From an uncultured Thermococci archaeon (GTDB lineage Archaea > CAYQAE01 > CAYVLA01), in contig CAZJVP010000011.1 of NCBI GenBank assembly GCA_964549615.1, positions 32,001-96,000 of the forward strand: DNA of 64,000 nucleotides, given 5' to 3'. Positions within the stretch are counted from its first letter, which is position 1. Every line of letters starts with the position of its first letter. The notes beneath the pieces are model-generated. The model ran no database searches. It was not told the origin of the DNA and worked only from the letters and a program-made list of their open reading frames with translations. Of the stretch, positions 130 through 48,047 are shown piece by piece. The position numbers and the translations under genes are program-made.

Positions 130-1413
130 TCATAGGCCAAGCCGCGTTGTGGCTACCTCGCGGTAGAGCCTGCGGCTCACCATCAAGGCCCAGATCACAA
201 GGCCGCACGTGAGAAGCGTGCCGCTGACGGCCAGCCATTCCGTCACGTAGATCCAGAAGAGCGCCCTGTCCTTCAGTCTCATGGCGTCGTCCTTCAGGCT
301 TGCTAACGCCGACATCGCCGATTCCATGATCTCTGCTGCATCTGCAAATTCGTAGGCCCGGTACCTCCCATACGATTCCAACCTGAGCTTGTCCGTCTCC
401 TGCATCCGCAGGTATACGCCCTGCGTGTTGGCCCCGAAACTATCGGCGAAGTCAAGCAGGCTGATGAGCAGCCATCTCTCCACGTTGTAGAAGGAATAGA
501 GCATGCGCAGGTTGTGTAGCTCGAACGCGTTCTCGGGCAACGGGGCACCCGCCGAGTGAAGGAGGATGTTGATGAAAAGATCGCCCGCGTACTCGTTCTC
601 AAACTCGCTTCGCAAGAAGATCGGTGACCACCAGGAGGAATCGAGGTCGTCGGCGACGACCCAGAAGATCCCGCCAGCCGGCCCCACCCTCCATGAAACG
701 AGCCAGTCGCTCTCCTTGCCAAGGCCTAGCGTGATGCCCTTCGATGGAAGTCCCACCACCCTCAATTTGGCCCACACGGTCGCCCCGATCCGCGTCGTGA
801 GGTAGGTAAAGGCGGTGGATCCCTTAACCCTCTCTATGCCGAGGGGGACGAACATCGATAGCACCGGAGGGTCGTGGTTGACGACCCTTATGCTGAAGAC
901 TGATCTGTCCTGCTTCATTCCGGCGTTGAGCTCGACGGGCAGTATCTCCCTGAGAGCCGAGTTTGCCCAACCGGGGTAGGCCGACCCGGAGGAGCTCGAT
1001 AGGTCGCCTCCCATCGTCACAAGACCTCCCAGACCGCTCTCCAAAGCATACCTCATGTCGGATATCTGGGATGGGGTGAACGGGTCGAGGTTTCCGTCGG
1101 GGAAAACGAAGAAGTCGATCTCCTTGACCAAGGACTCCCTGGTCCTGGGAAAGTATATCCGGACGTATCTCTGAGCATCCGTGATGCCGAACCTCCCCAC
1201 GCTATCTGCGTCCGTTGGGATGAGCACGAAGTCCGTGAGGGGGTCGGCGCCAAGCCACAGGGGTATGGGCGACTCTCCCGGCAGGACCTGTCCTATGGCC
1301 AGGACGCGAAGCCGTCCCTCACCGAGGGCGGATGGCGAGGCAAGAGAGATCGTTACCAGCGCCAGACATATGCGTTGCCAAGTCTGCCTATGCAGGATCA
1401 AACGCGGGAGCAA
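130..1413 (-). CDS. Stalked membrane-anchored surface protein, FGAN/EW-RRRLY family paralog 1
   Basis: N-terminal hydrophobic signal, RIYFPRT motif, GATase-like GGLVTMGG segment, DFADSFGANT, C-terminal WIYVTEW...WALMVSRRLYREVATTR; BRE/TATA-like CGAAAGATATTAC just upstream on minus strand. Confidence 0.85.
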   Translation of the reverse strand: MLPRLILHRQTWQRICLALVTISLASPSALGEGRLRVLAIGQVLPGESPIPLWLGADPLTDFVLIPTDADSVGRFGITDAQRYVRIYFPRTRESLVKEIDFFVFPDGNLDPFTPSQISDMRYALESGLGGLVTMGGDLSSSSGSAYPGWANSALREILPVELNAGMKQDRSVFSIRVVNHDPPVLSMFVPLGIERVKGSTAFTYLTTRIGATVWAKLRVVGLPSKGITLGLGKESDWLVSWRVGPAGGIFWVVADDLDSSWWSPIFLRSEFENEYAGDLFINILLHSAGAPLPENAFELHNLRMLYSFYNVERWLLISLLDFADSFGANTQGVYLRMQETDKLRLESYGRYRAYEFADAAEIMESAMSALASLKDDAMRLKDRALFWIYVTEWLAVSGTLLTCGLVIWALMVSRRLYREVATTRLGL

Positions 1414-1802
1414 TCTTCCTAGCGCTCATGATAGGCCTGTAATATCTTTCGCATCATACATCGGGGGCAGGCCTTGACTCATTCGCTGGCGGGGCAATCA
1501 TGGCAGGGTGACGGACGGCATCTCACGATCGGTCGCGCCCCCGCCGAGATCTGGGCGGCTCTGCGCCGCGCGCTAGTCTGAACCGTGACCGAAGCGGGCG
1601 CATGGTTGGGCCCCCAGAAGCTGAGGGTAGGATGTGCTGCTTCCTTGCATGCGCCGGGTCTTACGCTTCTCGTCCAGACGGCATGGCTGTTGAAACTTGG
1701 AGAATCCACCCCTGGCGCATATCTCGCCTCGGCCTTCTGCGGCGGGGGTGGTTCAGTCGCTTGAGCTCGCGGACCACAGGCTCCTGTACAACCTCGTTTC
1801 AT

Positions 1803-2387
1803 CTATTGGCTTTCGGCCGACGAGCCGCGGGCACGGATCGCCCGAAGAAGGGCTCTGCCGGCATTCCTTGCCTTCTCAAGCTCCGAGGGCTTCTTGAGGA
1901 TATCTCCCTTGTTTCGTGCGAGCACTCTCTCCCTGGCTACCGGCCTTGCGCCGTAGTACTCGAGCCAGCTCAGCATGATATCCTCGTGGGGCTCAAAGCC
2001 GGAGGATGCGGCGACGCTGATGAGCGCGAAGTCTAGGCTTGATAGAAGACTTCCCGCTTTGGACGCGTAGTAGCCGTGGCTTCGATCTATGAAGTCCTTC
2101 ATCCTGCCGGGAGGCCCATCCCAGTACACAGGCGCCCCTATGATTGCGCCCTTGGACTGGGCCAGTAGCTTGAGCAGTTGTTCCACGTCGTCATCCTGTA
2201 TGGCGCACCTGCCAAGCCTCATGCACTCCCGGCAGCCCCGACAGCTCTCGATCCTGTGTTCGTATATGCGGAGAAACCGGGTCTTCACTCCGGATTTCTG
2301 GACTTCGTCCAGCGCCGCGCGTACGGCTAGGTCTGTGTTGCCATCGACCCTGGGACTCCCGGAGACCCCGAGAACGAATTCCTCCAT
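1803..2387 (-). CDS. Flavodoxin-family / iron-sulfur flavoprotein (NADPH-dependent FMN reductase-like)
   Basis: GSPRxxGNT FMN motif, CxxCxxCxxxxxC cluster motif (CRGCRECMRLGRC), GAPVYW; abuts upstream isomerase gene. Confidence 0.88.
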   Translation of the reverse strand: MEEFVLGVSGSPRVDGNTDLAVRAALDEVQKSGVKTRFLRIYEHRIESCRGCRECMRLGRCAIQDDDVEQLLKLLAQSKGAIIGAPVYWDGPPGRMKDFIDRSHGYYASKAGSLLSSLDFALISVAASSGFEPHEDIMLSWLEYYGARPVARERVLARNKGDILKKPSELEKARNAGRALLRAIRARGSSAESQ

Positions 2388-3214: not shown

Positions 3215-3230
3215 ATGATTCCTCCGGTCT

Positions 3231-3511: not shown

Positions 3512-4261
3512 TCATAGGCCTCTTGAGAGCAGATCGGATCCGATCTGGATGAGGATGAAGTCCAAGAGGAAGATCCCCCCGGACAACGCGAGGAGCAGCA
3601 TTGGCCCCATGATGAGTGTGCCCGTGACCCCTCCGATCACGAAGATCAGCATGGGGAGAATTATGAGGGATCCCATCTGCATGGCGTAGTATGTCCGGTC
3701 AACCCTCGTGGAGATCATCAGCTCGACCAAGATGCCCAGCAGGGAAAAGGCCGGGACGGCTAGAAATACTAGCACGATCCAGCTTGCGTTCAGCACCGAC
3801 ACGGATCCGCCTGGGAAGGAGAGACTCACGACCGCCGATATGACCGCGAAGGCGGCAAGGGACGCGCCGAAGCCATAGGCCAAGGGCAGCAGACACTTGC
3901 CGAAGAACAGATCCATGTTGCTCAAGGGAAGGGCTAGGAGGGCCTCCAGCGTCTTCCTCTCCCGCTCGCCCGCGAAGGCGTCGGCCGCGATGGTCACGGG
4001 GAGCATCGTCGCCAACATCAGGAAGAAGGGCGGGGCCATGAAGTTGACGGCAAAGTAGATGGATTTCTGCATATCGGTCAGGCCAGGGGGAAACACCGAG
4101 TCGGGGAGATTCGGCAACTCGGTCGCCGCGTCCTCGGACGCTGAGGCCAAGATCATCATGGAGACGATGAAGATCAGCACTGCGGGAACAAGCACGATGC
4201 TGAACTTGAAGTACCCAGGCAGCTCCCTGAAATCCTTTCGCGCGATTGCCAGAGCCCTCAA
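3512..4261 (-). CDS. ABC-2 type exporter permease
   Basis: Six hydrophobic helices, AGERERKTLEALLALP motif; overlaps stop of ATPase gene. Confidence 0.9.
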   Translation of the reverse strand: MRALAIARKDFRELPGYFKFSIVLVPAVLIFIVSMMILASASEDAATELPNLPDSVFPPGLTDMQKSIYFAVNFMAPPFFLMLATMLPVTIAADAFAGERERKTLEALLALPLSNMDLFFGKCLLPLAYGFGASLAAFAVISAVVSLSFPGGSVSVLNASWIVLVFLAVPAFSLLGILVELMISTRVDRTYYAMQMGSLIILPMLIFVIGGVTGTLIMGPMLLLALSGGIFLLDFILIQIGSDLLSRGL

Positions 4262-5196: not shown

Positions 5197-5611
5197 GGAA
5201 CTCGCCCTGCTCCATAAGCCTCTCCCAACTCTTCCTCGTCCTCCCGGCGATGCCAACGCTGTAGGCCCTGACCTTTAGGCCGAAGTCCCAAGGCTTGACG
5301 GGCGCCCTGTCGACGAACTTTTTCAGGACCAGAGCGATCTTGGCTTGCACCGACTTATCGATCGGGGAGATCATGATGTCGCTGATGTCCTCGGGCTTGA
5401 GCCAGCCTGGAAAGCCGAGCCCGGCTCTCATCCTGTACCTGTCGTGGTAGACCCTGATCGTATAGACGCCCCCTTCTATATCGAAGTCATCTCCGTTCTC
5501 CACCTGGGAGTGAACGAAGGGTAGGCCTATCTCTCCGAGGATCTGCTCTAGGATTTTGGCCGCCTCCCGGTAGTGGAAGGGGTAGCTTGAGCGCCACGTG
5601 TCCTTTGCCAT
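5189..5611 (-). CDS. Hypothetical protein, co-operonic with ABC exporter
   Basis: ATG 5611 with GGTGAGGAG RBS; stop overlaps ATPase start; normal globular composition. Confidence 0.7.
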   Translation of the reverse strand: MAKDTWRSSYPFHYREAAKILEQILGEIGLPFVHSQVENGDDFDIEGGVYTIRVYHDRYRMRAGLGFPGWLKPEDISDIMISPIDKSVQAKIALVLKKFVDRAPVKPWDFGLKVRAYSVGIAGRTRKSWERLMEQGEFHV

Positions 5612-5619
5612 GCTGCTCC

Positions 5620-6378: not shown

Positions 6379-7611
6379 GTGGCGCGGGCCCGCCTGGCCT
6401 TGATGGCCATAGTGGTGCTTTCGTCGTGCTACCCCGGTTGCGGGGCGAAAAGGATCAAGGTGCTTCTCACCGGCCAGATCGACAACGCGATAGAGCCGCT
6501 GCAGATGTGGTTTGCCTCCGAGCCCCTGGTTGACTATCTGCCGGTTCCATCGCGGGACCTTGCGGGCAACCTGGGTGGGGACGAGGCAATGAAGAGGTTC
6601 ATCCGTCTCTACTTCCCCCGCACCCTGAGGGACATCAAGGCCTTCGACTTCATCCTGCTCAACTCGCCCGTCGTGTACCTCTTCACCTCCGAGCAGCTGG
6701 CTTGGATGTACGAAGCGATCGTCGATGGAACCGGCGGGCTGAACACGGCAAGCGTCATGAGCCAGGACGCAAGCATCCACGGGGCGTGGGCCGCCTCGAT
6801 CCTGCAGACGGCATTCCCCAACGATGCGCCCGCCGTGGTCGCGAGATACAAGGGAGCAACGAGCCCGATAGGCGCGTTCCGCATCCGGGTCAACCGCGAG
6901 TTCCCGCAGCCGGTGCTTACGCCCTTCATCCCGCTTGGGGTGGAGACCTTCAATGGCTATGACTCGCGGATCATCATAGCTCGCGAGGGCTCGTCGACGC
7001 TGGCATGGCAGGTCGGAAACTTCCCTGCCCTTGGCGAGGTGCCGTACATCGTGGTCTGGGACTACCAGCTCGGAAGGACGATCACGACGGGCGATGCATT
7101 CGGCCACACGTTCTGGAGCTCCTACCGCGGAGGAAGGATCACCGACAACATCTACGCCCTGGACATGCTCATGAACATGATATTCTACTGCACCCGGCGG
7201 GAACTTCCGGCCGACGTCCTGGCCTTCCACAACATGAGGACCACCTTTGTGGACTTCCGCACGAGGATGGGGCTGCTCGCCGCCTTGATGGAGTTCATCG
7301 ACAGGTTCGGCGCCAACCCGGATCCCATCCAGCGCAAGGCTGCGGAGCTTGAGAAGCTGGCGGGAGCCGCGAGGGAGAGCTACCTGTCACAGGACTTTGA
7401 GACCTGCAGTAGGCTGATGGAGTCGGCCATCGCCGGGTTCTCTGAGGCGGAGGATGTGGCGATTGAGCTAAGGAGAAGGGCCCTGCTGTGGGTTTACGCC
7501 ATAGAGTGGATGGCGACGACGGGGGCGATCATGATCTCAAGCTCCGTCCTCTGGGCGTTGATGGTTAGGCGGAGGCTGTACAAGACAGTGGCCACCACGA
7601 GGGCTGGTTGA
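6379..7611 (+). CDS. Stalked membrane-anchored surface protein, family paralog 2
   Basis: GTG start ~25 nt after TTTATCTT; signal peptide; RLYFPRT; EFIDRFGANP; WVYAIEW...WALMVRRRLYKTVATTR. Confidence 0.85.
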   Translation: MARARLALMAIVVLSSCYPGCGAKRIKVLLTGQIDNAIEPLQMWFASEPLVDYLPVPSRDLAGNLGGDEAMKRFIRLYFPRTLRDIKAFDFILLNSPVVYLFTSEQLAWMYEAIVDGTGGLNTASVMSQDASIHGAWAASILQTAFPNDAPAVVARYKGATSPIGAFRIRVNREFPQPVLTPFIPLGVETFNGYDSRIIIAREGSSTLAWQVGNFPALGEVPYIVVWDYQLGRTITTGDAFGHTFWSSYRGGRITDNIYALDMLMNMIFYCTRRELPADVLAFHNMRTTFVDFRTRMGLLAALMEFIDRFGANPDPIQRKAAELEKLAGAARESYLSQDFETCSRLMESAIAGFSEAEDVAIELRRRALLWVYAIEWMATTGAIMISSSVLWALMVRRRLYKTVATTRAG

Positions 7612-11723: not shown

Positions 11724-12971
11724 TTAGGTTACTCTCTCGCTAGTGCCCAAGCGGGTCGCCCCTGCTTTGCCATACAATTCCCGCCTGACCATCAGTATCC
11801 AGATCAGGGCCCCGGACAGAACCGAGACGCCGGCCACGGCCATCCATTCCACTGTGTACACCCAGGCCAGCGCCTCATCCTTGAGCCGGATTGACTTGTC
11901 CGTCAGCCTGTTCAATTCCTCCATCAACTCATTCATCAGGGCGTAGGCCTCGTCGAATCGTCCTTCTAGGTACATGGAGTCCGCCGTGGACTTGCGGTCC
12001 TCCAACTCGGCCAGCTCCACGCTCAAGCCTCGGGTGTTTGCCCCGAACATCTCGGCGAATTCGAAAACCGAGATGACTAGGGATCTGTCACGACGGAATG
12101 CCCACAGCATGTCTCTCAGCACATGGACCTTGATGGGGTCCTCGGGAAGCTCCCGGTGAGATCCGTGCCAGATGATGTTAAGTACGACATCGACCGAGAA
12201 CGGGTTCACATTCACATCCAAGAACGGATCGCTTCTTGTGAACCCCATGAATGTGAAGGTGGTTGCAGCCTCATATTCCCACTCGAAGATGTGGGCCACA
12301 TCCCCGGGCAACGGATAGGCATACTCGAGGCGGTCGGTCTTGATCCAGCTGAGTATCTTGCTACCTGGCTTCGGAATGGTGAGAAGCCCGCTGTAGGTCT
12401 GGATCGCCGTCTCGATCTCCTTCTTGAAAGGCCTCACCACGGGGGGGATAGTAGGATCATCGTTCACCACGAGCCTCCCCTGCAACCCAGACGCGTATCC
12501 CGGGTCCCTGATCGCCGCCATCGCATCGTTGGGAAAGGCCTCCGAAAGCGTGCTGGTGGCCCAGCGCTCGGCCAAGTGTAGGTGCACGCTGATGGAACTC
12601 CGGGTGTTTGCCGCCCCCAGCCCGTGAACCGTAATGGCTTCGTACATCCACTGAACCTGCTGTGGCAAAAAGAACGCCATGTCCACCCCCTGGTAAAGCA
12701 TGAAATCATACGAGACTAGATCCTCGAACTTCCTCGGGAAGTAGATCCGCATCATCCTCTCGATGAACCCCACCTCGATTCCACCGGTTGTGGGCTCTCT
12801 GAGGGGGACGATCGTCCCTCGGATGGCAGGATCGGCCAGCATCCATCCACCTACGACCTCGGTGAACTCAGGGTTCACCATGGCGAGAAGACCAATTGTT
12901 GAAGCAGTAGCCGGAAGGCAGGTTGGCAGGAGGAGACAGGTCGCCAGGAGGGCGTCCAGCACCCTCGGCAT
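11724..12971 (-). CDS. Stalked membrane-anchored surface protein, family paralog 3
   Basis: Likely ATG 12971 (MPRVLDALLATCLLL signal); RIYFPRK; EFAEMFGANT; WVYTVEW...WILMVRRELYGKAGATR. Confidence 0.85.
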   Translation of the reverse strand: MPRVLDALLATCLLLPTCLPATASTIGLLAMVNPEFTEVVGGWMLADPAIRGTIVPLREPTTGGIEVGFIERMMRIYFPRKFEDLVSYDFMLYQGVDMAFFLPQQVQWMYEAITVHGLGAANTRSSISVHLHLAERWATSTLSEAFPNDAMAAIRDPGYASGLQGRLVVNDDPTIPPVVRPFKKEIETAIQTYSGLLTIPKPGSKILSWIKTDRLEYAYPLPGDVAHIFEWEYEAATTFTFMGFTRSDPFLDVNVNPFSVDVVLNIIWHGSHRELPEDPIKVHVLRDMLWAFRRDRSLVISVFEFAEMFGANTRGLSVELAELEDRKSTADSMYLEGRFDEAYALMNELMEELNRLTDKSIRLKDEALAWVYTVEWMAVAGVSVLSGALIWILMVRRELYGKAGATRLGTSERVT

Positions 12972-13316: not shown

Positions 13317-13506
13317 GTGGTCCTGCGTCCTTCTCGATCACAACCGTCATCCTATGGACAGGCATGGACGTGCCCCAGGTTCCCTTGGCGACGTGCGTTG
13401 TGTGTCTGTGCCTTATTATGGGTTTTCCTGTATCCTGCATCCCGTATGCCCGTATGTACGAATACCACAAGGCCGTTGGCGATTCGCTTAGAATGCCGGC
13501 AATAGG

Positions 13507-14143: not shown

Positions 14144-15403
14144 TCACCGGGGCGCAAGCCTCGTGTATCGGACCTGCCTGTAGAGCCTTCGTCGGACCAT
14201 TAGTGACCAGAGCAACAGCCCACACACGAGCGCCGTTCCGGTAACGGCCAACCAGTCGATCACGTAGACCCAGACGAGAGCCCTGTGCTTGAGCCTCATC
14301 GCCTCGCCCTCGAGGTTCTCCATCATCTGGCCCGCGGTCCGGTAGCTCTCAAGCGCATCCTCGAAGCGCAGGTTGAGGTACTGGGGAAGAGCACCGGCAA
14401 CCACCCGGTCGATCTCGGTCAGCCTGTCCACGATCCTTTGGGTGTTTGCCCCGAACGACTCGCAGAACTCCAGCAAGGCTAGGAGCATGGACCGCCTTGT
14501 CGCGACCTCAAATATCTTCGACCTCGTGGCCTCCACCAGCGCCAAATCCTGGGGTACAGTCCTATCATCAAGGTAGATGAGGAGGTTGGCGCAGAAGTCA
14601 TAGACATACTTCCATCTCACGGAATAGAGGTACCATCCGCCCTCGCTGGCAATCGAGAACGTCCTCGGCCCGCCCTCAAGCCTCCATGTTACCATCAGGG
14701 GAGCATCGCATCCGGGCGAGACGACCCGTGCAAGCTCCTCGGCCCCGGGCCTAACGGTCAGGTAGTTGTGGTCCCATGGACCACCGCGCAGGGCAGGGTC
14801 ATCTGGGTCCCAGGGGATGCTTCTCATGAGCTCGTGTTCGGGCTTCAGTACGACTATTCGATGCTGTGGGGAGTCGTGCCAACCGCCGGGGACGTCCTCG
14901 GTCGGAAGCAGCGGCCCGATCGGTGTCTCACCCCACGCGGGATAGCCAGCGTAGCCGCCGAACGACTGCCAACCGCCGGTCATGACCATGCCCAGCCCGC
15001 CTTCGGAGACGGCGCGGGCCAGCTTGTCTATGTGCTGCCCGACCGCATGGACGTTGGCCTCGAAGAAGACGATCACATCGTAGTTCGAAACCACGTCTTG
15101 GAGGGTCCTGGGCATGTAAAGCCTGACGAGCCTGTTCAGGTCCTCAATTGTCGGGGCGGGCATCGGTCCGAAGAGCATGAAGTCCCGGATCGTGGCCTGG
15201 ACGAAGGTGGGCCGGAAGAGGGGATCGGACCTCATCAACCAGTACGGCATGGACCGCGCGACGCACCCCACGTAGAGCACGCCGATCCTGCCATCCTCTA
15301 GGCACCATGTCGCCGGAATAGCCACGAGGAGCAGGCAGAGCAGGAGGCCACCGGAGACCTGCGCCTTGCTGTAGGCACGGGCAGATTTCAATGGTTTCGT
15401 CAT
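14144..15403 (-). CDS. Stalked membrane-anchored surface protein, family paralog 4 (LEDGRIGVLYVGC subfamily)
   Basis: ATG 15403 ~25 nt after CTTAAGTA; RLYMPRT; GGWQSFGG; EFCESFGANT; WVYVIDW...WSLMVRRRLYRQVRYTR. Confidence 0.87.
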   Translation of the reverse strand: MTKPLKSARAYSKAQVSGGLLLCLLLVAIPATWCLEDGRIGVLYVGCVARSMPYWLMRSDPLFRPTFVQATIRDFMLFGPMPAPTIEDLNRLVRLYMPRTLQDVVSNYDVIVFFEANVHAVGQHIDKLARAVSEGGLGMVMTGGWQSFGGYAGYPAWGETPIGPLLPTEDVPGGWHDSPQHRIVVLKPEHELMRSIPWDPDDPALRGGPWDHNYLTVRPGAEELARVVSPGCDAPLMVTWRLEGGPRTFSIASEGGWYLYSVRWKYVYDFCANLLIYLDDRTVPQDLALVEATRSKIFEVATRRSMLLALLEFCESFGANTQRIVDRLTEIDRVVAGALPQYLNLRFEDALESYRTAGQMMENLEGEAMRLKHRALVWVYVIDWLAVTGTALVCGLLLWSLMVRRRLYRQVRYTRLAPR

Positions 15404-18101: not shown

Positions 18102-19394
18102 ATGAGGGTGGGATGCCTGCGCAATGCTGAGTCGGGCAAGAGAAGTGCACATCAGAGGCACCGCGCCATCTGCGTCGCAACCGTTGCATCAGTCCTGCTC
18201 GTCCTCGCGGAGATCGGCCATGGCTTGGAGGACGGCCGAATAGGGGTGCTGTACGTCGGCTGCATAGCCCGATCGCGGCCCTTCTGGCTCATGAGGTCGG
18301 ATCCCCTGTTCCGCATGGGCTTCGTGCAGGCGACGCTTCGGGACTGGGCGGCCGTCGGCCCCATGCCTGCGATGAGCGAGGCCCAGGTTCACAGGATGGT
18401 GAGGATGCAGATGCCCCGCACGTATGACGATCTGGTGGAGCGGTACGACGTCGTGGCTCTTCACAACGCCAACGTTCTCGCCGTCTCGCCCCACATCCAG
18501 AAGATGGCCCGCGGGGTCTCAGAGGGGGGACTCGGTCTGCTGATGTCGGGCGGGTGGGAGTCCTTCGGGGGGACGGGGTCGTCGTATCCGCCCTGGGGCG
18601 GGACGGCCGTCGGCGAGCTTCTCCCAACGGAGGATGTGGTCGGCACCTGGGTTCCCTCTGGGCGCCTAGGGATCGACGAGCCGCGCCACGAGCTGATCAG
18701 CAGTCTCCCCTGGGATCTGACCGACCTTGACCTGACAAACGAGGTGAAGTGGGACCACAATCTCGTGACCCTTAAGCCGGGCGCCGAGCAGCTCGCGCAT
18801 GCAACGTACATGGGCCGGGACGATCCTCTCATGGTCGTCTGGACCTTGGACAACGGCGCCAGGGTCTTCGCCCTGACGAGCGAGATCCATCGCTTCTTCT
18901 GGCAGGGCGGGGAGTACCGCAACGTGTGGAGGTACGCTTACGACTACGGTTGTAACCTCATGATCTACCTGGACAACCGCCCCGTGCCGCAGGACGTCGG
19001 GCTCGTGCACGCCGCCAGGGCCAAGATGTTCGAGGTTGAGACCAGGAGATCGCTGCTCGTCGCGCTCCTGGAGTTCTGCGAGTCATTTGGAGCGAGCACC
19101 CGTAGCATCTCATCCAGCTTCGAGGAGATAGATTCGGTGATCGCCGAGGCCCTGCCGCAGTACCTTCAGCTCCAGTTCGAGGAGATGCTGGAGAGCTACC
19201 GCGTTGCGGGCGAGATGCTGGCCAGGGCGGAGGAGGAGGCGGTGAGGCTAAAGAACCGCACCCTGCTCTGGGTCTACGTGATAGAGTGGTTGACCGTGAC
19301 CGGCACGGCGATGGTCTGCGGCTTCCTGCTGTGGTCCCTGATGGTCCGCCGAAAGCTATACCGCGAGGTCCGGATCACGAGGTTCGCGATGTAG
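18102..19394 (+). CDS. Stalked membrane-anchored surface protein, family paralog 5 (LEDGRIGVLYVGC subfamily)
   Basis: Promoter CAGAAAGTCTATAAG upstream; RMQMPRTY; GGWESFGG; EFCESFGAST; WVYVIEW...WSLMVRRKLYREVRITR. Confidence 0.87.
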   Translation: MRVGCLRNAESGKRSAHQRHRAICVATVASVLLVLAEIGHGLEDGRIGVLYVGCIARSRPFWLMRSDPLFRMGFVQATLRDWAAVGPMPAMSEAQVHRMVRMQMPRTYDDLVERYDVVALHNANVLAVSPHIQKMARGVSEGGLGLLMSGGWESFGGTGSSYPPWGGTAVGELLPTEDVVGTWVPSGRLGIDEPRHELISSLPWDLTDLDLTNEVKWDHNLVTLKPGAEQLAHATYMGRDDPLMVVWTLDNGARVFALTSEIHRFFWQGGEYRNVWRYAYDYGCNLMIYLDNRPVPQDVGLVHAARAKMFEVETRRSLLVALLEFCESFGASTRSISSSFEEIDSVIAEALPQYLQLQFEEMLESYRVAGEMLARAEEEAVRLKNRTLLWVYVIEWLTVTGTAMVCGFLLWSLMVRRKLYREVRITRFAM

Positions 19395-21591: not shown

Positions 21592-22461
21592 ATGGGCAGC
21601 GGGAGGGGTCGGTTCTTGGTCGACACGAGACTCGTGGGCGTACTGGCAATCGCTGCGATAGTCTCGACCACCCTCTCCATCCTTGTCTTCAGCAGGGTGG
21701 ATGAAGAGAGGATAGAGGTTCTCAAAAACCACTGGGAAACTCCGACGGTGGGCGGGTGGTGGCACCTGCCTTTGGCCGAGGGTGCGGTTCCCTATACCCT
21801 CGGGGTCGTCGCGCGGAAGCCGTTGGGCCGGGTCTCGATAAGGTTCGGCGTGCTGAGAAACCAGTCCTTCAGCCTCAACTACACCGGCCTGCAGGGGCTA
21901 TCGGCTAGGGAGATCGCCTCAAGGGTCACGGAACTTTCATTTCTGGACTCTCGGGCCAGGGATTTAGCCCTTCACATGGATGTGAAGCCAATCGAGCACG
22001 AGGTCGATGCCACATTCGGCGGTGCTCGGCGGAGGGTGCTTGTGATCGATTACTATCCTTGCCTTGAGGCCCTGGTGGATCCGGGCTGGCCGCTGGAGGC
22101 ACCCTATCTCTTTGCCCTCGTCTTCGACGGATCAGGGAACCTTTCGCAGCTCTACTCCGGCTTCTGGGATTTCTTCGAGGCCTGCGCGGCGAGCGTGCCG
22201 GAGATCGCCATCCAGCTTAACGAGAAGATCACGAGGTACGCCAATGAGCAGAACATGGCCGAGGGCCGCCTGCCGATCAGCATGACCCGCGAGATGGTGG
22301 GAAAGGTCTCCTTCGACGACCTTAGGAGGGACGACCGCATATTCGTAAGCTTCAGGGTGAACGGCGCGGCCGTGCCCGGAGATGCGGCCTTCATGCAGAT
22401 CATACGCCTCGAAGTTGATGGGGAGTACCTAGACCCCCTGATCAACGTCCTGAGAAGGTGA
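21592..22461 (+). CDS. N-terminally membrane-anchored hypothetical protein
   Basis: Single TM LVGVLAIAAIVSTTLSILVF then soluble domain; divergent from 21484 gene across GTTATAAG. Confidence 0.68.
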   Translation: MGSGRGRFLVDTRLVGVLAIAAIVSTTLSILVFSRVDEERIEVLKNHWETPTVGGWWHLPLAEGAVPYTLGVVARKPLGRVSIRFGVLRNQSFSLNYTGLQGLSAREIASRVTELSFLDSRARDLALHMDVKPIEHEVDATFGGARRRVLVIDYYPCLEALVDPGWPLEAPYLFALVFDGSGNLSQLYSGFWDFFEACAASVPEIAIQLNEKITRYANEQNMAEGRLPISMTREMVGKVSFDDLRRDDRIFVSFRVNGAAVPGDAAFMQIIRLEVDGEYLDPLINVLRR

Positions 22462-22516: not shown

Positions 22517-23704
22517 CTACCTCTCGCCGAGACGCGTGACCGCGACCTCCCGATATAGCCTCCTTCGGATCATCACGGTCCAGAGGATGAATCCGCAGAC
22601 CATGCCCGTTGCCGTCACCGATAGCCACTCGATGACGAAGACCCAGAGCAGCGCCCTGTTCTTGGCCCTCATCATGTCATTGCTCAGCTGCCGCATGTCG
22701 TCGTTGGCGTCGGCCAGTATCTCGGTCGCCTTTGCCATGTCGCCGTCGACGAAGGCCTCTTCGGCGAGCAATCGCCTCCCCCTCGTCTCGCCAAGCTTGA
22801 CTTCGAATGGTCGAAGGTTGGCGCCGAAGCGGTCGACGAACTCTATGACGCTGATCGCCACCCTCACCTGTTCGTCCAACGCGGCGAAAAGCGCGCGCGC
22901 CTCATGGACAAGCTCCAGGTCATCCGGGAAGGGGAGGCCTGTGGCAAAGCAGAGATGGTTGAACACGTAGTCGGGAAGGTACCTCCAGAACCTCTTGACC
23001 TCGTCCGGCATGGTGTCCCAACCGTGGTCGTAGTGCAAGACCATACCATTCCCATAGGCCCGCGTGACGAAGGCGGGCGTCTTCCTCCCGCTCCAGACAG
23101 CCCATATCGTTGTGCCCTCCTTTGGGATCAGGTCACCGTGATGGCCCCAGTTGATGATGATCTTCTCCATGTCGGGGAAGTCCACCAAGGGTCCATGTGT
23201 GACTATCTCGTAGCGCTGCCTTCCCTTAATGGCTTCGATGCAGTTGGGATAAAGCTCCGCCGGGAACGCATCGTATAGGGTGGTCTCCTGCCAGTACTCC
23301 ATCCCGCACATCGAGACGCGTTGGGCGAACTCGACCAGTAGCAGCCCGATGCCCTCGTACACCCCCTTTCTGAACCATTCCAGGTAAGTGTCCGTGAGCA
23401 CCTTGGGCGAGAAGTCGTGGAAGATCATGACGTCTGTGCCCGAGACGAGGTCGCTGTACCTCCTAGGGAGGTAGGCCCTGGCGAACCTCACCGCCTCGTC
23501 GTATCCCAGAACCAAGATGGTGCAGGGGACCGTCCCGACGAGCTGGAACCTTGGGTCCGTCCCCAGCATGTCGATGAACATGTGGTTGTTCGCGACGACC
23601 TCGCCGACCCACAGGACCTTTTTCTTGCCATCGGTCCCTCCAAGCCCGCCGATGCACGGAATTGAGAGCAGCAAGAGAAGGACGGGCAGATGCTTTCTCG
23701 GCAC
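22517..23704 (-). CDS. Stalked membrane-anchored surface protein, family paralog 6
   Basis: TATA TTTATGTA ~25 nt upstream; signal peptide; RAYLPRRY; EFVDRFGANL; WVFVIEW...WTVMIRRRLYREVAVTR. Confidence 0.87.
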   Translation of the reverse strand: MPRKHLPVLLLLLSIPCIGGLGGTDGKKKVLWVGEVVANNHMFIDMLGTDPRFQLVGTVPCTILVLGYDEAVRFARAYLPRRYSDLVSGTDVMIFHDFSPKVLTDTYLEWFRKGVYEGIGLLLVEFAQRVSMCGMEYWQETTLYDAFPAELYPNCIEAIKGRQRYEIVTHGPLVDFPDMEKIIINWGHHGDLIPKEGTTIWAVWSGRKTPAFVTRAYGNGMVLHYDHGWDTMPDEVKRFWRYLPDYVFNHLCFATGLPFPDDLELVHEARALFAALDEQVRVAISVIEFVDRFGANLRPFEVKLGETRGRRLLAEEAFVDGDMAKATEILADANDDMRQLSNDMMRAKNRALLWVFVIEWLSVTATGMVCGFILWTVMIRRRLYREVAVTRLGER

Positions 23705-24928: not shown

Positions 24929-26167
24929 TCATGCCCGTCTTGTCACCCCCGCCTCCCTATACAACCGCCTCCTGACCATCAACGTCCAGGAGAGGAACGC
25001 TACGGCGCAAATTGTCCCGGTGACTGCCGACCACTCCACCGCGTAGACCCAGAACATGGCGCGTGCCTTGAGGATGATGGCCCTCTGCTCGACCCTATTG
25101 GTGAGGTCGAAGGCCTCCCGCAGAAGGGCTTGGGACGACTCGAAGTCCTGTGAAAGATATTCCTCCCCGGCACGCTCGACGAGCACGTCGGCCTCCGTTA
25201 TCTGCTCCTGCAGGCTCCGACTGCTGGCGCCGAACTTCTCGACGAAGTCCAGCAGGGAGTACAGGACCCCAGTCCTGAGAACGTAGTCCTTGAACCTACC
25301 TCTGAGGATGTGGACCAACATGGGGTCCGATGGCAGTTCCCTGCGGAGCGAGTACCAGACGATGTTGGTGAATATGTCCAGAGCATACCTCTCCTTGCCA
25401 TCTCCTCCCCACCAGTATCCCCACATGGGGCTGACGAACTGGTCGCCGGTAGCCCAGATCCTAGAAGCCCTGTCGCCGAACTCCCATGAAAGAAGGAGCG
25501 GACAGCTGGTCTTGCCGAGCTTGAAGGGTATGTCCTTTGCCCTGGCCCACTCCGTGGTACCTTCCTTGGGGAACAGCAGCCGGGTGTAGCCGAAGGGCTT
25601 GACGCTCTCGATGCCAAGGGCCTTGTACGGCCTGATCACCGGCGGGAGGGACGGATCGTCCACGATCTCCAGGTTGTAGGCCTCTATGTTGTCGAACGCC
25701 GTGGCGATGAACTTCTCCTGGTCGTGCGGAAAGGCCTTGGGCAGGTCGGAGCTCATCCAGGGGACGTACATCTCGGGATACGCGCTCTGTGTGAAGCCGA
25801 GTGCTCCAGTTCCCTCCTTCTCCAAAGCTCTGTACATCCACTCGATCTGCGCGGGGTCATGGTGTTGCAGATACGGCTGGTCGTAGACGAAGAAGTCGTA
25901 CGAGAGCAAGGCTTCGTACGATCGGGGCATATAGATCCGGATGAATCTGCGTAGCTCCTCGGTGGTGTAGATACCGGCATGGATGGACCTTGAGACCACG
26001 AGCGTGCCCTCCAGGGAGGGCTCGGCCCTGAGGAAGTCGGATATCGGGCTATAGCTGGGGTCGACCTGCCCCATGGCAAGTATGTTGATGACCCGCCTTC
26101 CACATGCGACAGAGGATCCCGAGAGGAGGACGGTGAGGGCTGCTAAGGCAGTCCAACGGGACTCCAC
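24929..26167 (-). CDS. Stalked membrane-anchored surface protein, family paralog 7
   Basis: GTG 26167 after CGAAATACATAAG; RIYMPRSY; DFVEKFGASS; WVYAVEW...WTLMVRRRLYREAGVTR. Confidence 0.87.
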   Translation of the reverse strand: MESRWTALAALTVLLSGSSVACGRRVINILAMGQVDPSYSPISDFLRAEPSLEGTLVVSRSIHAGIYTTEELRRFIRIYMPRSYEALLSYDFFVYDQPYLQHHDPAQIEWMYRALEKEGTGALGFTQSAYPEMYVPWMSSDLPKAFPHDQEKFIATAFDNIEAYNLEIVDDPSLPPVIRPYKALGIESVKPFGYTRLLFPKEGTTEWARAKDIPFKLGKTSCPLLLSWEFGDRASRIWATGDQFVSPMWGYWWGGDGKERYALDIFTNIVWYSLRRELPSDPMLVHILRGRFKDYVLRTGVLYSLLDFVEKFGASSRSLQEQITEADVLVERAGEEYLSQDFESSQALLREAFDLTNRVEQRAIILKARAMFWVYAVEWSAVTGTICAVAFLSWTLMVRRRLYREAGVTRRA

Positions 26168-41990: not shown

Positions 41991-42104
41991 CGGAGAGTGC
42001 TGGTCGCCGGCAAAAAGGAAAGCTCTTAGAAGGAGGCGCCGGAGGCACCGGGCATGAAGCCCTCGAATCACGGCATCGACATCAACGATGAATCCGGAAG
42101 GGAG

Positions 42105-45056
42105 ATGGCCCGCTCCACCGAGGAGATCAGGAGGGGCTTCGCGGACCCGCCGGTCTCATGTCGGCCCCACACGCGATGGTGGTGGATGGGCAATGCGATC
42201 ACGAAGGAGGACCTCACATGGCAGCTTGAACAGATGCACGAGAAGGGCATAGGCGGGGTCGAACAGGTGACCATAGAGCCGGTCTACGAAAAGGGCAATG
42301 TACCCTACCTTTCCGACGAGCATCTGGACCTCCTGGTCCATGCGATACGCGAGGCCAAGAGGCTGTGCATGGAGTTTTCGCTGAATTTTGGCGGCCCCGG
42401 TTGGGTTATCGGCGGCGCTTGGGTGAAGCCCTCCGACCGCAGCAAGAACATGGTGCCGACCGCCATGCGCCTTTCGGGTGGGCGGCTTTTCTCGGGCAAG
42501 CTGCCGACCAAGGTGGGGGAGGTGCCGAGGACCGGCGATCGGGCTGCTAGGGACGTGGGGCCTAGGGATAGGCTTGTGGCGGTCGTGGCTGGCAGGGTGG
42601 TTGATGGGCGTCTGGAGGAATCGTCCCTCGTGGATCTGACCTCCAAGGTCAGGGGTCGTTCCATCCGATGGCGTGTCCCTGAGGGCGAATGGAAGCTGAT
42701 GGCGTTCTGGTTGATGTACACCGGGCAAGGGCATGCTGTCGATCACTTCAACAAGCAGGCGATGGAGCGGTACTGCGAGTTCCTTGGCGGCAAGTTCAGG
42801 AAGGCCTTCGGAGAGGAGTTCGGGAGGACCGTGGAATCCTTCTTCATCGACAGCTTCGAGGTCGACCTTCTGCACAACGGCATATACTGGAGCGACGGCC
42901 TGCTGGCCGGATTCAAGGAGTTCAAGGGCTATGACTTGACCCGGTACCTGCCCGCCATCTGGTGGGACGTTGGGGCGATCACGCCCAAGATTCGCTACGA
43001 CGTGAACGAGTATCTGCACCATGTTGGGCTGGATGCCTTCTTCAAGACGTTCTTGGGCTGGTGCGAGAGAAACGGCGTGAAGGGGAGGATACAGCCCTAC
43101 GGCTTCGCGACCGACATACTACAGGGTGCCGGCATGGCGCATATCCCGGAGATGGAGGTCACTGCGGGCGAGAAGGATGCCGTTCCCTGGTTTGACACCA
43201 GGATTGGCCCCAAGAAGTACGTCGCCTCGGGCGCGCACCTGTACGGTCGCAACATCGTGAGCGTGGAGGCCTACACCTACATCCACTGGGAGACCTACCG
43301 GGCAACCCTCGAGGAGCTAAAGATCGCGAGCGACGACTTCCTCCGCAACGGCGCCAACAAGTTCTACAACCACGGCTACACGTGCTCGCCCGAGCGGGAC
43401 ATCGCGCCGTCGCGGCGCTTCGAGGCCGAGGTCCTCATCAACCATCAGAATATCTGGTGGAGGTACTACCCGCTTCTTAGCGACTACGTCGCGCGATGCT
43501 GCTACCTTTTACGGCAAGGCCGCACGGTGGCCGACGTGGCCGTGTACCTGCCGCTGGCCAACCAGTGGACCCTGGATGTCCGCAACCCGCGCAAGTGGAC
43601 GCGGGGATTCGACTGGGGCAGTCTTGGAAAGCTGCTCTGGGCCAACGGGTATGACTTCGACCTTGTGAACGATGACGTTCTTCTGAACCACGCAAGGATC
43701 GAGGATGGCGTGATACGGGTCCGCGACTTGGAGTACCGGGTTCTGCTCCTGCCGAACATCCAGGCCATGCCCTTGGAGAGCTTGGAGCGCATCCGGGACT
43801 GGGTCAAAGGAGGTGGAGTGGTGGTGGCGCTGGAGCGCGTCCCTGACTCGTCGGTTGGCTTGGAGGATTACGAACGCAAGGATGCGGCAGTTCGTGCCAT
43901 CGTCCGTGAGATGTTCGACACCCCTTCTTGGCGCGTCAACGAGACCGCGCCGAGGGATTATGGCAGGGGCAGGACATACCACATCCGCAACGTCATCGAC
44001 CGCTATGACGTTTTGGAATGGCACGCCAGCGCGCTCGATCCGTTCCTCAACGTTCTGCGGCGCCACATCCAGCCCGACATGGGAATAGACTTCGTGAGGG
44101 AGGGGATCCGGGAGAACGAGGGCCTCTGTTTCATCCACAGGCGCCTGCCGGGCAAGGAGATCTACTTCGTGGCAAACATCCAGGACCGGGCCATCGAGAT
44201 GCGCGTGTCATTCCGCGTAAGGGGGAAGGCCCCAACGGAGTGGAATCCCCACACCGGAGAAGTGAGGCGCGTCCTTGAGTACGAGGAGAAGGATGGCCTG
44301 ACTTGGATTCCCCTGCGCATGAAGCCGTACGATTCCACCTTCATCGTCTTTGACGAAGAGGTTGAGCCATACCGCCACGCGGTGGATATAAGTTTCAGCA
44401 GGGTTTTGGACGTCGATGAGGAGGGGGTCGAAGTTCTGGCCACCCGCAACGGCTTACAGATGGTGAGGCTCGACGATGGGACTTTGCTCCGCAAATTCGT
44501 GGAGGGAATCCCGGCGCCCCTTGCGGTGGATGGGGAGTGGCATCTCGAACTGGAAGGAACGGGCTCCCCACGCCTCTCGCTGAGCTTGCCCAGGCTCACC
44601 TCCTGGACAGAGGATCCGCGAACCAGGCATTTCAGCGGCACCGGAAGGTATCGGATCGAGTTCGACATTCCCCAGGTCTACCTGGAGGAAGGGCTACAGC
44701 TTGAGCTGGATCTGGGGGTGGTGGGCAACATCGCCGAGGTGGAGCTGAACGGGCGCCATATTGGCGTGGTCTGGATGCGGGGAAGGACCCTGGATATCAC
44801 GGGCATGGTGGCTGTCGGGCGAAACGTGCTCGTCATCGATGTGACCAACACCCTGATCAACCGGGTGTCCGGGCTAAAGGAGCTGCCGCCGGTACCCGAG
44901 CATCTGAGGGCTCGCTACGGAGGGGATCCCAGGGCAAGGACCTCAAGCTCGCGCATGCTCATCGGATACGAGCCCCTGCCGGTCTCCGGCCTCCTCGGCC
45001 CTGTGTTGATAAGGGCCTCAAGACGGGTGTTCATCCCCCTGACGCGGAGCCCCTGA
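42105..45056 (+). CDS. GH106-like alpha-L-rhamnosidase family glycoside hydrolase
   Basis: RPHTRWWWMG, GIGGVE, FIDSFE, SGAHLYG, FSGTGRY, SGLLGPV. Confidence 0.85.
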   Translation: MARSTEEIRRGFADPPVSCRPHTRWWWMGNAITKEDLTWQLEQMHEKGIGGVEQVTIEPVYEKGNVPYLSDEHLDLLVHAIREAKRLCMEFSLNFGGPGWVIGGAWVKPSDRSKNMVPTAMRLSGGRLFSGKLPTKVGEVPRTGDRAARDVGPRDRLVAVVAGRVVDGRLEESSLVDLTSKVRGRSIRWRVPEGEWKLMAFWLMYTGQGHAVDHFNKQAMERYCEFLGGKFRKAFGEEFGRTVESFFIDSFEVDLLHNGIYWSDGLLAGFKEFKGYDLTRYLPAIWWDVGAITPKIRYDVNEYLHHVGLDAFFKTFLGWCERNGVKGRIQPYGFATDILQGAGMAHIPEMEVTAGEKDAVPWFDTRIGPKKYVASGAHLYGRNIVSVEAYTYIHWETYRATLEELKIASDDFLRNGANKFYNHGYTCSPERDIAPSRRFEAEVLINHQNIWWRYYPLLSDYVARCCYLLRQGRTVADVAVYLPLANQWTLDVRNPRKWTRGFDWGSLGKLLWANGYDFDLVNDDVLLNHARIEDGVIRVRDLEYRVLLLPNIQAMPLESLERIRDWVKGGGVVVALERVPDSSVGLEDYERKDAAVRAIVREMFDTPSWRVNETAPRDYGRGRTYHIRNVIDRYDVLEWHASALDPFLNVLRRHIQPDMGIDFVREGIRENEGLCFIHRRLPGKEIYFVANIQDRAIEMRVSFRVRGKAPTEWNPHTGEVRRVLEYEEKDGLTWIPLRMKPYDSTFIVFDEEVEPYRHAVDISFSRVLDVDEEGVEVLATRNGLQMVRLDDGTLLRKFVEGIPAPLAVDGEWHLELEGTGSPRLSLSLPRLTSWTEDPRTRHFSGTGRYRIEFDIPQVYLEEGLQLELDLGVVGNIAEVELNGRHIGVVWMRGRTLDITGMVAVGRNVLVIDVTNTLINRVSGLKELPPVPEHLRARYGGDPRARTSSSRMLIGYEPLPVSGLLGPVLIRASRRVFIPLTRSP

Positions 45057-46266: not shown

Positions 46267-46760
46267 TTCTATGTCCGGTCCAGCCACTCTTATTGGGCCC
46301 GCCGCATGCGTGCTGGGCCAGGAACGCCGTTTCATGGATCCCGCATCTTCCCAGCGAGCTTCCTCCAAGAGGAATGTTAGCTCTTGCGGCCCTGATCACT
46401 CCATTCCTTTACGCGCTGTTTCCTGCTCTGCAGCGGATCAGGGGAGTTACCCGCCTAGGCCGTCACCCGCCATACGCGGCTTGGCAATAAGCCGAATCGC
46501 CGCCAACAGGACATCCCTTCCATTTTATTGGTGACAAAAATATTGTGCATACGCTTTGGCCTCGCAAATCGGTTATCGGCTTGTGCCTGCTCTTCGACTT
46601 TCTGGCCATGATAGGACAACCTCGCTGAGGACCCTGCCGCATCCGATGCCCTGCGACGTTTTTGCTCTTGACCAGGATGGCTGCTCCTGCACCTTGATCA
46701 TCGATCGTCGATCGTAAGAGTGTTAAGGGCTGGACGATTCGCGATCGTGGGTGACTGCCC

Positions 46761-48047
46761 TTGCGCGAAGCCCGTCATGCCCAGCTCAACGCCCTCGGTT
46801 TCCTACTGGGAATTGCCCTTGTTGGATTCCAGCTTGCCAACGTGCAGGGCTTGGACGACGGAAGGATCGGTGTGCTCTATGTTGGTTGCCTTGCGCGTTC
46901 CACCCCGTTCTGGTGGATGAGGTCCGATCCCCTCTTCTCCATGTACTTCGTTCAAGCGACCCTGCGAGACTGGGCGAATTGGGGTCCAACCCAGCAGGCG
47001 ATCTCGGAGCTGCAGGTCTTCAGGATGATCAGGCTGTACATGCCCCGTTCCTACCACGACCTGACATCGCGTTTCGATGTCCTGATCATGGCCAACGCCA
47101 ACAGGGAGGCGGTGACCCCGCACAACACGGAGATGCTTGCCCGGGGAGTTCGAGAGGGGGGTATGGGGTTCGTCATGTGCGGCGGGTGGGAGAGCTTCGG
47201 CGGCGCGTTCTCCCGTCCCTCGTGGGGAGACACATCCATAGGGGCACTCTTGCCCACAAACGATGTGCCCGGAACCTACGTGCTGCAGCCCGCCGGCGAC
47301 CTGCGTCTCATCATAGACAAGCCCGACAACGAGTTCATCAAGAGCATTCCCTGGGACCCAACCCAACCCTTCATGACGAACTTCGAACACAACATCGTGA
47401 CGGCAAAGGAGGGGGCAAACGTCCTGGCACATGTGGAGAGCACCTTCTTCAAGGATCACCCGGGCATGGTTACGTGGGAGATCGAGGGCGGGGTAAGGAC
47501 CTTCGCCATAACGGGTGAGATCATCGGTCCAGGATCCGAGCCAGGCCAGGTCCACACCATGTGTTACCGCGGAGGGCCCTGGAAGTACGCCATCGACTTC
47601 GGATGCAATCTCATGATCTACCTAGATCGTCGCCCTGTGCCCCAGGATGTGGAGCTCGTGCATGCGGTGAGGTCAATCATGTTCGATACGAGCACGAGGA
47701 GGACGCTTCTGGTCGGGCTCCTGGAGTTCTGCGACTCATTTGGCGCGAACACAGACAGGATCGTATCGAAGATGGACGAGGCGCAGGATCTGATATCGGC
47801 GGCAATCCCGAGCTACCTTGAGCTTCGCTTCGAGGAGGTCTTGGAAGCCTACGAGAAGGTTGGGGCGATGCTTTTGCAGATCGAAGAGGAGGCCGTCCGG
47901 CTGAAGAACCGAACCTTGACCTGGGTCTACGCGATTGAGTGGATGGCCGTGACCGGCACATCCCTGGTCTGCGGCGTCGTCCTGTGGTCGCTCATGATAC
48001 GCCGGAGGTTTTACAGGGAAGTCCAAACTACGAAGCTTCTCATCTAG
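46761..48047 (+). CDS. Stalked membrane-anchored surface protein, family paralog 8 (LDDGRIGVLYVGC subfamily)
   Basis: Signal peptide; RLYMPRSY; GGWESFGG; EFCDSFGANT; WVYAIEW...WSLMIRRRFYREVQTTK. Confidence 0.87.
   Translation: MREARHAQLNALGFLLGIALVGFQLANVQGLDDGRIGVLYVGCLARSTPFWWMRSDPLFSMYFVQATLRDWANWGPTQQAISELQVFRMIRLYMPRSYHDLTSRFDVLIMANANREAVTPHNTEMLARGVREGGMGFVMCGGWESFGGAFSRPSWGDTSIGALLPTNDVPGTYVLQPAGDLRLIIDKPDNEFIKSIPWDPTQPFMTNFEHNIVTAKEGANVLAHVESTFFKDHPGMVTWEIEGGVRTFAITGEIIGPGSEPGQVHTMCYRGGPWKYAIDFGCNLMIYLDRRPVPQDVELVHAVRSIMFDTSTRRTLLVGLLEFCDSFGANTDRIVSKMDEAQDLISAAIPSYLELRFEEVLEAYEKVGAMLLQIEEEAVRLKNRTLTWVYAIEWMAVTGTSLVCGVVLWSLMIRRRFYREVQTTKLLI

Follow-up and report, generated by a model that had tools for sequence, protein, structure and literature searches.

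We describe a large family of membrane proteins, here called the main family, that is encoded eight times in a 64,000-nt stretch of DNA from an uncultured Thermococci archaeon (assembly GCA_964549615.1, contig CAZJVP010000011.1, positions 32,001 to 96,000, or G000:C11:32001-96000 in our numbering; hereafter the window). The original prediction, made from the window, had spoken of a family of eight. A hidden Markov model (HMM) search of all stop-to-stop open reading frames (ORFs) of the genome (3.21 Mb, 104 contigs, 99.5% complete, 2.8% contamination) returned 126 full-length copies, defined as single ORFs covering at least 85% of the model, together with 22 partial rows, and the window genes are a small part of this set. 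The aligned parts total 148,986 nt on 47 contigs, or 4.6% of the genome. To our knowledge, close to 5% of its DNA for one uncharacterised protein family is among the largest unexplained investments in an archaeal genome. The main family consists of lineage-restricted, anciently expanded, single-pass membrane proteins. By analogy with domains of similar fold, its members may form a repertoire of non-catalytic glycan- or ligand-binding surface receptors on membrane pedestals, a reading that we favour with somewhat less than even confidence.

Results

Taxonomic range of the main family

The organism's phylum and class comprise only five genomes, four in family f1 and one in family f2, which served as our reference set. 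A profile of the C-terminal anchor module, described below, gave 138-139 matches in the organism's own genome, and ~94-96 and at least ~146-150 among the other f1 genomes. The same profile found no match in the sister genome G001 of family f2 (98% complete). G001 has four matches to PF07090, the Pfam domain of the main-family head, and the three among those listed lie in ORFs of 573-964 aa. Public relatives are either unnamed or annotated as 'hypothetical protein' or 'uncharacterized membrane protein', and 'Theionarchaea archaeon' is the sole organism label attached to them.

A common layout with a GATase1-like head

An alignment of the eight window paralogs spans their full length and contains 28 invariant columns; identity to copy 1 is 26-33%. 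A profile built from them matches each over ~400 of 417 positions (E 1e-136 to 1e-168), and the same search revealed no ninth copy or fragment of the main family in the window. All eight share the layout originally described: a hydrophobic signal at the N-terminus, a head, which is alpha/beta in fold, a stalk, here a pedestal of three helices, then a transmembrane (TM) helix and a basic tail. The motifs named at the time also recur genome-wide: over the 126 copies, R..R.[YQ].PR is conserved at 0.94-0.98, and [ED]F.[ED].FGA[NS] is present, with FGA at 0.87-0.97. A signal peptide is predicted from the N-terminal hydrophobic run, which occurs in 121 of 126 copies, and from the modelled N-terminal helix. 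This run ends in a Cys in 36 of 126 copies, for example window copies 2, 3, 4, 6 and 7, and some of these have a lipobox-like context.

Two AlphaFold models were made, that of copy 4 (P0004) from an alignment of 110 public relatives and that of copy 6 (P0006) from 108 own-genome paralogs. They reach a predicted local distance difference test score (pLDDT) of 92.8 and 90.2, respectively, with a predicted template modelling score (pTM) of 0.85 for both, and have an identical layout: an N-terminal helix, a head of ~240 residues, three long helices and a short tail. The three helices form an antiparallel pedestal, of which the third, ~58 residues long, continues into the membrane in both models. 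A homodimer prediction with two copies of P0004 residues 36-419, run without controls, returned a score of 0.00 and a mark of 0.42.

The modelled head has the same three-dimensional fold as 2GK3 and 3RHT, and the family profile matches the solved PF07090 members 3RHT (E 1.5e-12), 2GK3 (7.5e-7) and 3SOZ (8.6e-7). The PF07090 model itself, with a gathering score of 27 bits, gives 29.0 bits for P0008, 26.6 for P0004 and 18.2 for P0005, and leaves the other five window copies without a hit; it detects 52 of 108 tested own-genome members at E≤1e-3 and yields 55 matches genome-wide. Ranking next among the structural neighbours are non-catalytic GATase1-like domains of the carbohydrate-active proteins GH42, GH164, GH29, GH112, OST48 and Agd3. 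A search of Pfam and NCBIfam for a characterised full-length relative found none.

Does the head retain the catalytic residues of its superfamily? There is no sign of an amidotransferase triad, and the conserved nucleophile is absent. At the column of the nucleophile elbow the 126 copies carry T (30), V (19), A (17), S (16) and I (14) as the most frequent residues. No Cys, His or Ser column reaches 50% anywhere in the head among these copies, and the conserved Cys nucleophile plus His (and Glu) of class I glutamine amidotransferases (GATases) and DJ-1/PfpI proteins is not found. The earlier assignment of a class I GATase-like/DUF1355 head without catalytic Cys is therefore borne out by the PF07090 fold, the profile matches and the lack of a conserved Cys column, and no intact enzyme active site of this kind is seen. 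The GGWxSFGG stretch, initially put forward as a mark of the head, is confined to a subfamily: 3 of 8 window genes have it, and its Trp is found in 19 of 126 copies. Residues that are conserved in the head include R91, R94, P98, R99, D109 (0.84), D269 (0.91) and N273 (P0004 numbering), along with the R..R.Y.PR motif.

A private anchor module that is unlikely to be a sorting signal

The C-terminal 130-residue module has 140 matches in the genome at E≤10, every one in family ORFs. Against 1.84 billion representative proteins it matches 439 clusters at E≤1e-3; the best 150 of these 439 are all at most 468 aa long and carry the module at their C-terminal end. Every one of the 74 genomic occurrences of the tail motif falls within a family ORF. 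The anchor module is thus private to the main family. Its TM helix and RRR-LY tail form the best-conserved stretch of all over the 126 genome copies, in line with the constant base of the original prediction. In the FGAN loop, the TM helix and the tail, the top residue has a mean frequency of 0.61-0.78, compared with 0.14-0.45 in most elements of the head. An extracellular head and pedestal and a cytoplasmic tail are predicted on the basis of the signal and the positive-inside rule.

Could the module be a sorting signal that is cut by the lineage's archaeosortases, in the manner of PGF-CTERM or PEP-CTERM? Its TM helix is followed by an RRR cluster, and PF09721 archaeosortase/exosortase genes mirror the family, with two per f1 genome (4 of 4) and none in G001, a comparison of five related genomes only. 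However, the TM helix is an unbroken extension of a folded pedestal helix with no linker or Pro/Gly signature before it, and ~15 conserved residues follow it. No NCBIfam model of a C-terminal signal matches at cut-off, the best being PVV_CTERM (E 0.018, 14.8 versus 27 bits, in 1 of 8 copies). The module is never found on another head type, either among the 140 local matches or among the best 150 of 439 global ones. Moreover, at least 10 other proteins of the genome end in [IVM]PE, a TM helix and RR(K) and would make better archaeosortase substrates, and of 93 candidates with a C-terminal TM helix and basic end, none is a family member. Because the folded pedestal is continuous with the TM helix, ~15 conserved residues lie beyond the membrane and better-fitting substrates exist elsewhere, we do not read the module as a sorting tag and regard that role as very improbable.

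The two archaeosortase/exosortase-family genes of this genome lie outside the window, at G000:C88:53688-54371 and G000:C51:56558-57319; genomes of the lineage have two each. Candidate substrates include C5_1045_2655, C16_9698_11257, C54_10599_14291, C88_6042_7559 and C99_133976_135079, by appearance a PEP/PEF-CTERM-like system.

An old repertoire with constrained heads

Selection was analysed on 17 reciprocal-best pairs with a same-genus genome (70-88% identity). The head has a nonsynonymous divergence (dN) of 0.133 and a ratio to synonymous divergence (dN/dS) of 0.125, the pedestal 0.217 and 0.196, and the TM helix plus tail 0.150 and 0.143; with dS ~1.06, near saturation, these ratios are approximate, while the order of the dN values is clear. 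A divergence baseline from flanking ORFs of the same-genus genome (median 55%, shadow and paralogous hits included) was too noisy for use. The proposal of a variable head on a constant base stands for the comparison across paralogs, given above, and falls for that between species, in which the head is the most constrained part.

Paralogs are ~29% identical overall, and conserved residues lie mostly in core strands and turns. Insertions and deletions concentrate in loops 70-85 and 186-211 and in segment 252-266 of the head; loop 47-59 varies in sequence without them. Within the genome, a copy shares a median of 53% identity with its closest paralog, and a value of 70% or higher is reached in just 11 of 126 cases. 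Some copies stand in a one-to-one relationship with another genus, as in one case with a best match of 61% and a second of 38%, and some paralog lineages are, by these sequence comparisons, older than the split of genera. The dN/dS values, the scarcity of recent duplicates and the cross-genus counterparts together indicate that the repertoire is old and that each head has been retained. Retained heads fit distinct, maintained specificities and fit ill with a fast-changing coat.

A second orphan family next to main-family genes

An all-against-all clustering of 2,868 called genes was searched for families enriched beside the main family. One cluster stands out, with 16 of 26 paralogs being immediate neighbours of main-family genes where ~2 are expected (hypergeometric p 2e-12). 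This family 2 comprises 29 full-length copies and 2 fragments by HMM search of the genome. Its proteins, ~280 aa in length, consist of an N-terminal TM helix and a ~250-residue domain without known relatives: searches of Pfam (E≤0.1), PDB sequences (best E 1.2) and the Atlas gave no match above noise, the Atlas model is poor (pLDDT 0.49), and hhalign finds no profile similarity to the main family (probability 0.2).

Thirteen of the 29 copies sit 6-47 nt downstream of a main-family gene on the same strand, 4 are convergent with one, and 20 lie within 300 nt of one. Seen from the main family, 19 of 126 copies (~15%) have a family 2 gene at 300 nt or less, 13 of these in tandem. The five genomes contain 31, 41, 23, 17 and 0 family 2 matches, the same presence and absence as the main family. 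The tandem order recurs in 9 of 24 sampled family 2 copies, in all three other genomes, and one main-family/family 2 pair has an orthologous counterpart in the second species of the genus. Similarities among main-family proteins correlate with those among their adjacent family 2 proteins (Mantel r 0.445, 18 pairs; 0 of 2000 permutations as high), and the pairs have thus multiplied and diverged jointly. The idea that the paired main-family genes are one subfamily was rejected: on a FastTree phylogeny, 11 changes are needed for 13 genes, compared with a mean of 12.6 and a minimum of 10 in shuffles. Further family 2 copies are found, for example, at G000:C36:27084-28031, C48:47284-48108 and C79:10910-11833. 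A single-copy membrane partner shared by all members, as had been envisaged, was not found among the neighbours; the sole enriched neighbour is the multi-copy family 2.

Glycan-degrading enzymes among the neighbours

The first non-family gene on each side of every copy (n=218, from family-seeded gene calls) was compared by Pfam hits with 150 control genes, drawn from eight 20-kb stretches that were chosen at random at distances of over 10 kb from every family copy. Glycoside hydrolase (GH), polysaccharide lyase (PL), carbohydrate esterase (CE) and sulfatase families account for 18 of 218 neighbours and 3 of 150 controls (odds ratio 4.4, Fisher p 0.011), or 18 of 109 versus 3 of 94 when only Pfam-annotated genes are counted (p 0.002). 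For broader glycan-related families the figures are 26 of 218 and 3 of 150 (p 3e-4). The CAZyme-rich context noted in the window is thus statistically borne out as a moderate enrichment. Genes for ABC-2 permeases and ABC ATPases were not enriched (4 of 218 neighbours, 4 of 150 controls), nor were peptidases among the 218 neighbours. PrsW protease, considered as a processing partner, was rejected: only one of the 218 neighbours encodes it, and all 5 genomes have it, the family-free one among them.

Within the window, glycan-degradation genes encode a GH106 alpha-L-rhamnosidase (42054-45056) and a glucuronyl esterase-like protein (58929-60059). The ORF at 37827-40457 (876 aa), which belongs to the same glycan-degradation context, has no Pfam hit and a 32%-identical paralog on contig C84. 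The interval from copy 1 to copy 2 includes a gene pair for an ABC-2 permease and an ABC ATPase (3512-5256, minus strand). A cluster of 35 called genes for uroporphyrinogen decarboxylase-like (URO-D-like; MtaA-like) proteins has a window member at 53864-55042 (minus strand); five of these genes adjoin family genes, which is not significant (p 0.12).

The window genes

Coordinates of the window features are collected in Table 1. All eight ORFs are stop-free, on strands -,+,-,-,+,-,-,+, and sum to 10,032 nt, 15.7% of the window, in keeping with the ~16% first estimated.

Table 1. Main-family and family 2 features of the window (positions in nt from the first letter of the window).
Feature	Position	Strand	Evidence
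Main-family copy 1 (P0001, 427 aa)	130..1413	-	intact ORF; full-length profile match 2.5e-162
Main-family copy 2 (P0002, 410 aa)	6379..7611	+	intact ORF; profile match 1.1e-158
Main-family copy 3 (P0003, 415 aa)	11724..12971	-	intact ORF; profile match 6.2e-149
Main-family copy 4 (P0004, 419 aa), modelled representative	14144..15403	-	AlphaFold pLDDT 92.8, pTM 0.85
Copy 4, predicted N-terminal signal/hydrophobic helix region (residues 1-36)	15296..15403	-	helix 8-28 in model
Copy 4, PF07090 GATase1-like head (residues 40-281)	14561..15286	-	
Copy 4, three-helix pedestal (residues 287-376), predicted extracellular; holds the EFxExFGAN turn between helices 1 and 2	14276..14545	-	
Copy 4, transmembrane helix (residues 377-402), running on from pedestal helix 3	14198..14275	-	model; conservation 0.61
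Copy 4, basic tail RRRLYR.V..TR.., predicted cytoplasmic	14147..14197	-	conservation 0.66
Main-family copy 5 (P0005, 430 aa)	18102..19394	+	profile match 3.1e-168
Family 2 member	21592..22461	+	convergent with copy 6, 3' ends ~55-70 nt apart; HMM match 1.3e-78
Main-family copy 6 (P0006, 395 aa), second modelled member, without Pfam hit	22517..23704	-	intact ORF
Main-family copy 7 (P0007, 412 aa)	24929..26167	-	profile match 4.9e-164
Main-family copy 8 (P0008, 428 aa)	46761..48047	+	intact ORF; only window copy over the PF07090 gathering score (29.0 vs 27)

Most copies had been thought to possess their own promoter. An A/T-rich hexamer at -30 to -35 precedes 5 of 8 window genes, not all of them; over 123 copies, upstream A+T content rises modestly to 0.46-0.50 at -40 to -21, compared with a background of ~0.40. 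The copies had also been described as staying intact while neighbouring genes decay. All eight window copies are indeed open, but about five broken family loci exist elsewhere in the genome. Decay of the neighbours is weakly supported, by one clear remnant and one probable truncation, with a coding density of 0.87 compared with 0.90 genome-wide. The remnant, between copies 3 and 4 (13498-13842, plus strand), retains only the C-terminal third of a Zn-dependent alcohol dehydrogenase-like gene: it encodes 115 residues, corresponding to positions 236-350 of 354, with 53% identity to the paralog at G000:C44:5654-6715. The other is a BNR_2 (sialidase-like) ORF at 29667-30440 (plus strand) of 257 aa, which covers profile positions 60-265 of 277, has paralogs of 367-404 aa and is probably truncated.

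Discussion

What might a single archaeon do with more than a hundred such proteins? On the receptor reading that we favour, the heads would be non-catalytic recognition modules, each paralog keeping its own ligand specificity under purifying selection, with glycans or glycoconjugates as the most likely ligands. The repertoire would keep substrates, or the enzymes that act on these, at the surface of an archaeon that degrades polysaccharides, and its effect would be akin to that of CBM-bearing or SusD-like binding proteins. The conserved membrane-proximal part, made up of the FGAN turn, TM helix and tail, may serve as a permanent anchor docking to something common, and the adjacent, co-diversifying family 2 protein would be the best candidate for a direct partner of a subset of copies. 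GIFT domains, which share the superfamily, are proposed to bind sugars (PMC7226087).

Several points weigh against this reading. PF07090 has no characterised member, and because of this the notion of a binding module draws on analogy at the level of fold; according to PMC13432705, its authors came across no functional study of STM3548. The conserved Asp and Arg residues of the head (D109, D269, R..R.Y.PR) could form an unrecognised catalytic site. The enrichment of glycan-degrading enzymes is a modest one, at 8% of neighbours; it was computed with crude ORF calls and eight clustered control stretches and could arise from shared residence in accessory regions. As to family 2, 107 of 126 main-family copies (~85%) have no such gene within 300 nt, and the paired copies are scattered over a tree whose deep branches are weakly resolved. 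The near-saturated dS, finally, bears on the selection estimates.

Could the heads instead be enzymes with a non-canonical active site, for example sugar hydrolases or isomerases as suspected for ThuA-like proteins, the family being a plain expansion of membrane-tethered exo-enzymes with differing substrates? Such enzymes would suit the strong purifying selection on the heads, the conservation of D109, D269, N273 and the Arg-rich motif, and the glycan-degrading enzymes nearby. Yet none of Cys, His, Ser and Glu forms a conserved column in the head, the elbow position varies, PF07090 members have no known activity, and the few residues shared by paralogs of ~29% identity belong mainly to core strands and turns; we consider an enzyme expansion quite unlikely. 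A structural or protective coat, or a set of adhesins diversified for attachment between cells or to particles or for evasion of viruses, with copies expressed at different times, strikes us as distinctly improbable. It would explain why ~126 copies are dispersed, apparently with an individual A/T-rich element upstream of each, and why variable heads stand on a constant anchor. Against it, the heads are the slowest-evolving part between species, few duplicates are recent, orthologs persist across genera, and PADLOC defence models match none of the eight window copies; no cassette or recombination structure was noticed, though no search aimed at one was made. The strong purifying selection on the heads (dN/dS 0.125) argues in particular against the diversified coat that was one of the options of the original prediction, if taken to be of the antigenic-variation kind.

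Members of the family might also be accessory subunits or sensors that can replace one another and that dock, by way of TM helix and tail, onto a common membrane machine. This could be the AglB oligosaccharyltransferase, in the way that Wbp1/OST48 joins the eukaryotic enzyme, a transporter or a signalling complex, with the head selecting the substrate or signal. Conservation that peaks in the FGAN turn, TM helix and tail, a tail motif that is private (74 of 74) and the presence of AglB/STT3 genes in the genome would all agree with such a role. The neighbourhoods, in contrast, offer no common partner: ABC-2 permease and ABC ATPase genes are not enriched, PrsW adjoins the family once and occurs where the family does not, STT3 is adjacent once only with a weak 25-bit match, and the likeness to OST48 appears to be at superfamily level only. 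The probability of this arrangement seems low to us. In the single STT3 case, on a 3.3-kb contig, the family copy G000:C61:334-1524 lies ~800 nt upstream of the weakly STT3-like C61:2353-3120 (25.4 bits, E 7.8e-6).

Extending the receptor reading to both families, one may picture a previously undescribed archaeal surface recognition system in which more than 100 type I-anchored GATase1-like receptors, each for a different glycan or ligand and with a private docking module, would in part form heterodimers with co-evolving, N-terminally anchored family 2 proteins; it would be a counterpart, built from unrelated parts, of bacterial Sus-like or cellulosome-like capture. This fuller picture is speculative and, by analogy, conceivable rather than probable. 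Whatever the function, 4.6% of the genome of a free-living archaeon is devoted to one uncharacterised family, as a repertoire under purifying selection across genera. If glycans prove to be the ligands of the heads, the family would reveal a way in which uncultured archaea of sediments and hot springs capture polysaccharides without bacterial-type systems, and would provide a first role for the widespread, function-less PF07090/DUF1355 domain; the adjacent family 2 gene is a concrete candidate partner.

Comparison with known systems

The closest relatives of the head are the solved members of PF07090 (GATase1_like, formerly DUF1355), namely STM3548 (2GK3), STM1381 (3SOZ) and 3RHT of Planctomyces limnophilus. 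These are stand-alone proteins of ~250 aa that are annotated as cytoplasmic, whereas in the main family the head is combined with a signal, a pedestal of three helices, a conserved TM helix and a tail. The main family further differs in its own invariant R..R.Y.PR motif, in that fewer than half of its members are seen by the Pfam model, and in its ~126 copies per genome.

Likeness to GIFT-domain proteins, which include OST48/Wbp1 of the eukaryotic oligosaccharyltransferase, the N-terminal domain of IFT52, and GldG, is apparent at the superfamily level only. Window copies have no Pfam hit to the GIFT or ABC_transp_aux models (E≤1), the neighbourhoods show no link to ABC-2 transporters and none to STT3 beyond the single weak case given above, and GIFT proteins are single-copy subunits, unlike the repertoire described here. 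An identity with GldG/ABC_transp_aux was rejected for want of a Pfam match and of enriched ABC-2 permease/ATPase adjacency. In Aspergillus fumigatus Agd3 (6NWZ), CBM87 makes up the N-terminal domain and is joined to a catalytic deacetylase domain; it is secreted, not membrane-anchored, and displays no sign of binding residues in common with the main family.

A functional likeness is possible with the SusD-like and surface glycan-binding proteins of Bacteroidota polysaccharide utilization loci: like these, the main family has numerous paralogs, is predicted to be exposed at the surface and is encoded in the company of glycan-degrading enzymes. The fold is unrelated, however, the anchor is a TM helix and not a lipid, and there is neither a SusC-like partner nor an operon-like structure of a polysaccharide utilization locus; most main-family copies are monocistronic and dispersed. 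Like the main family, the PGF-CTERM/ArtA and PEP-CTERM/exosortase sets number dozens per genome, end in a conserved TM helix and basic cluster, and co-occur with an archaeosortase. There, one removable tag is placed on unrelated heads; here, a folded pedestal and a long conserved tail carry a single head type.

In the literature that was searched, as far as its accessible text goes, no described system has such an architecture, in agreement with the original prediction. Judged by the same sources, the domain family of the head is already known, as one without assigned function, and what is new is the pedestal-TM-tail module, the expansion to 126 copies and the pairing with family 2.

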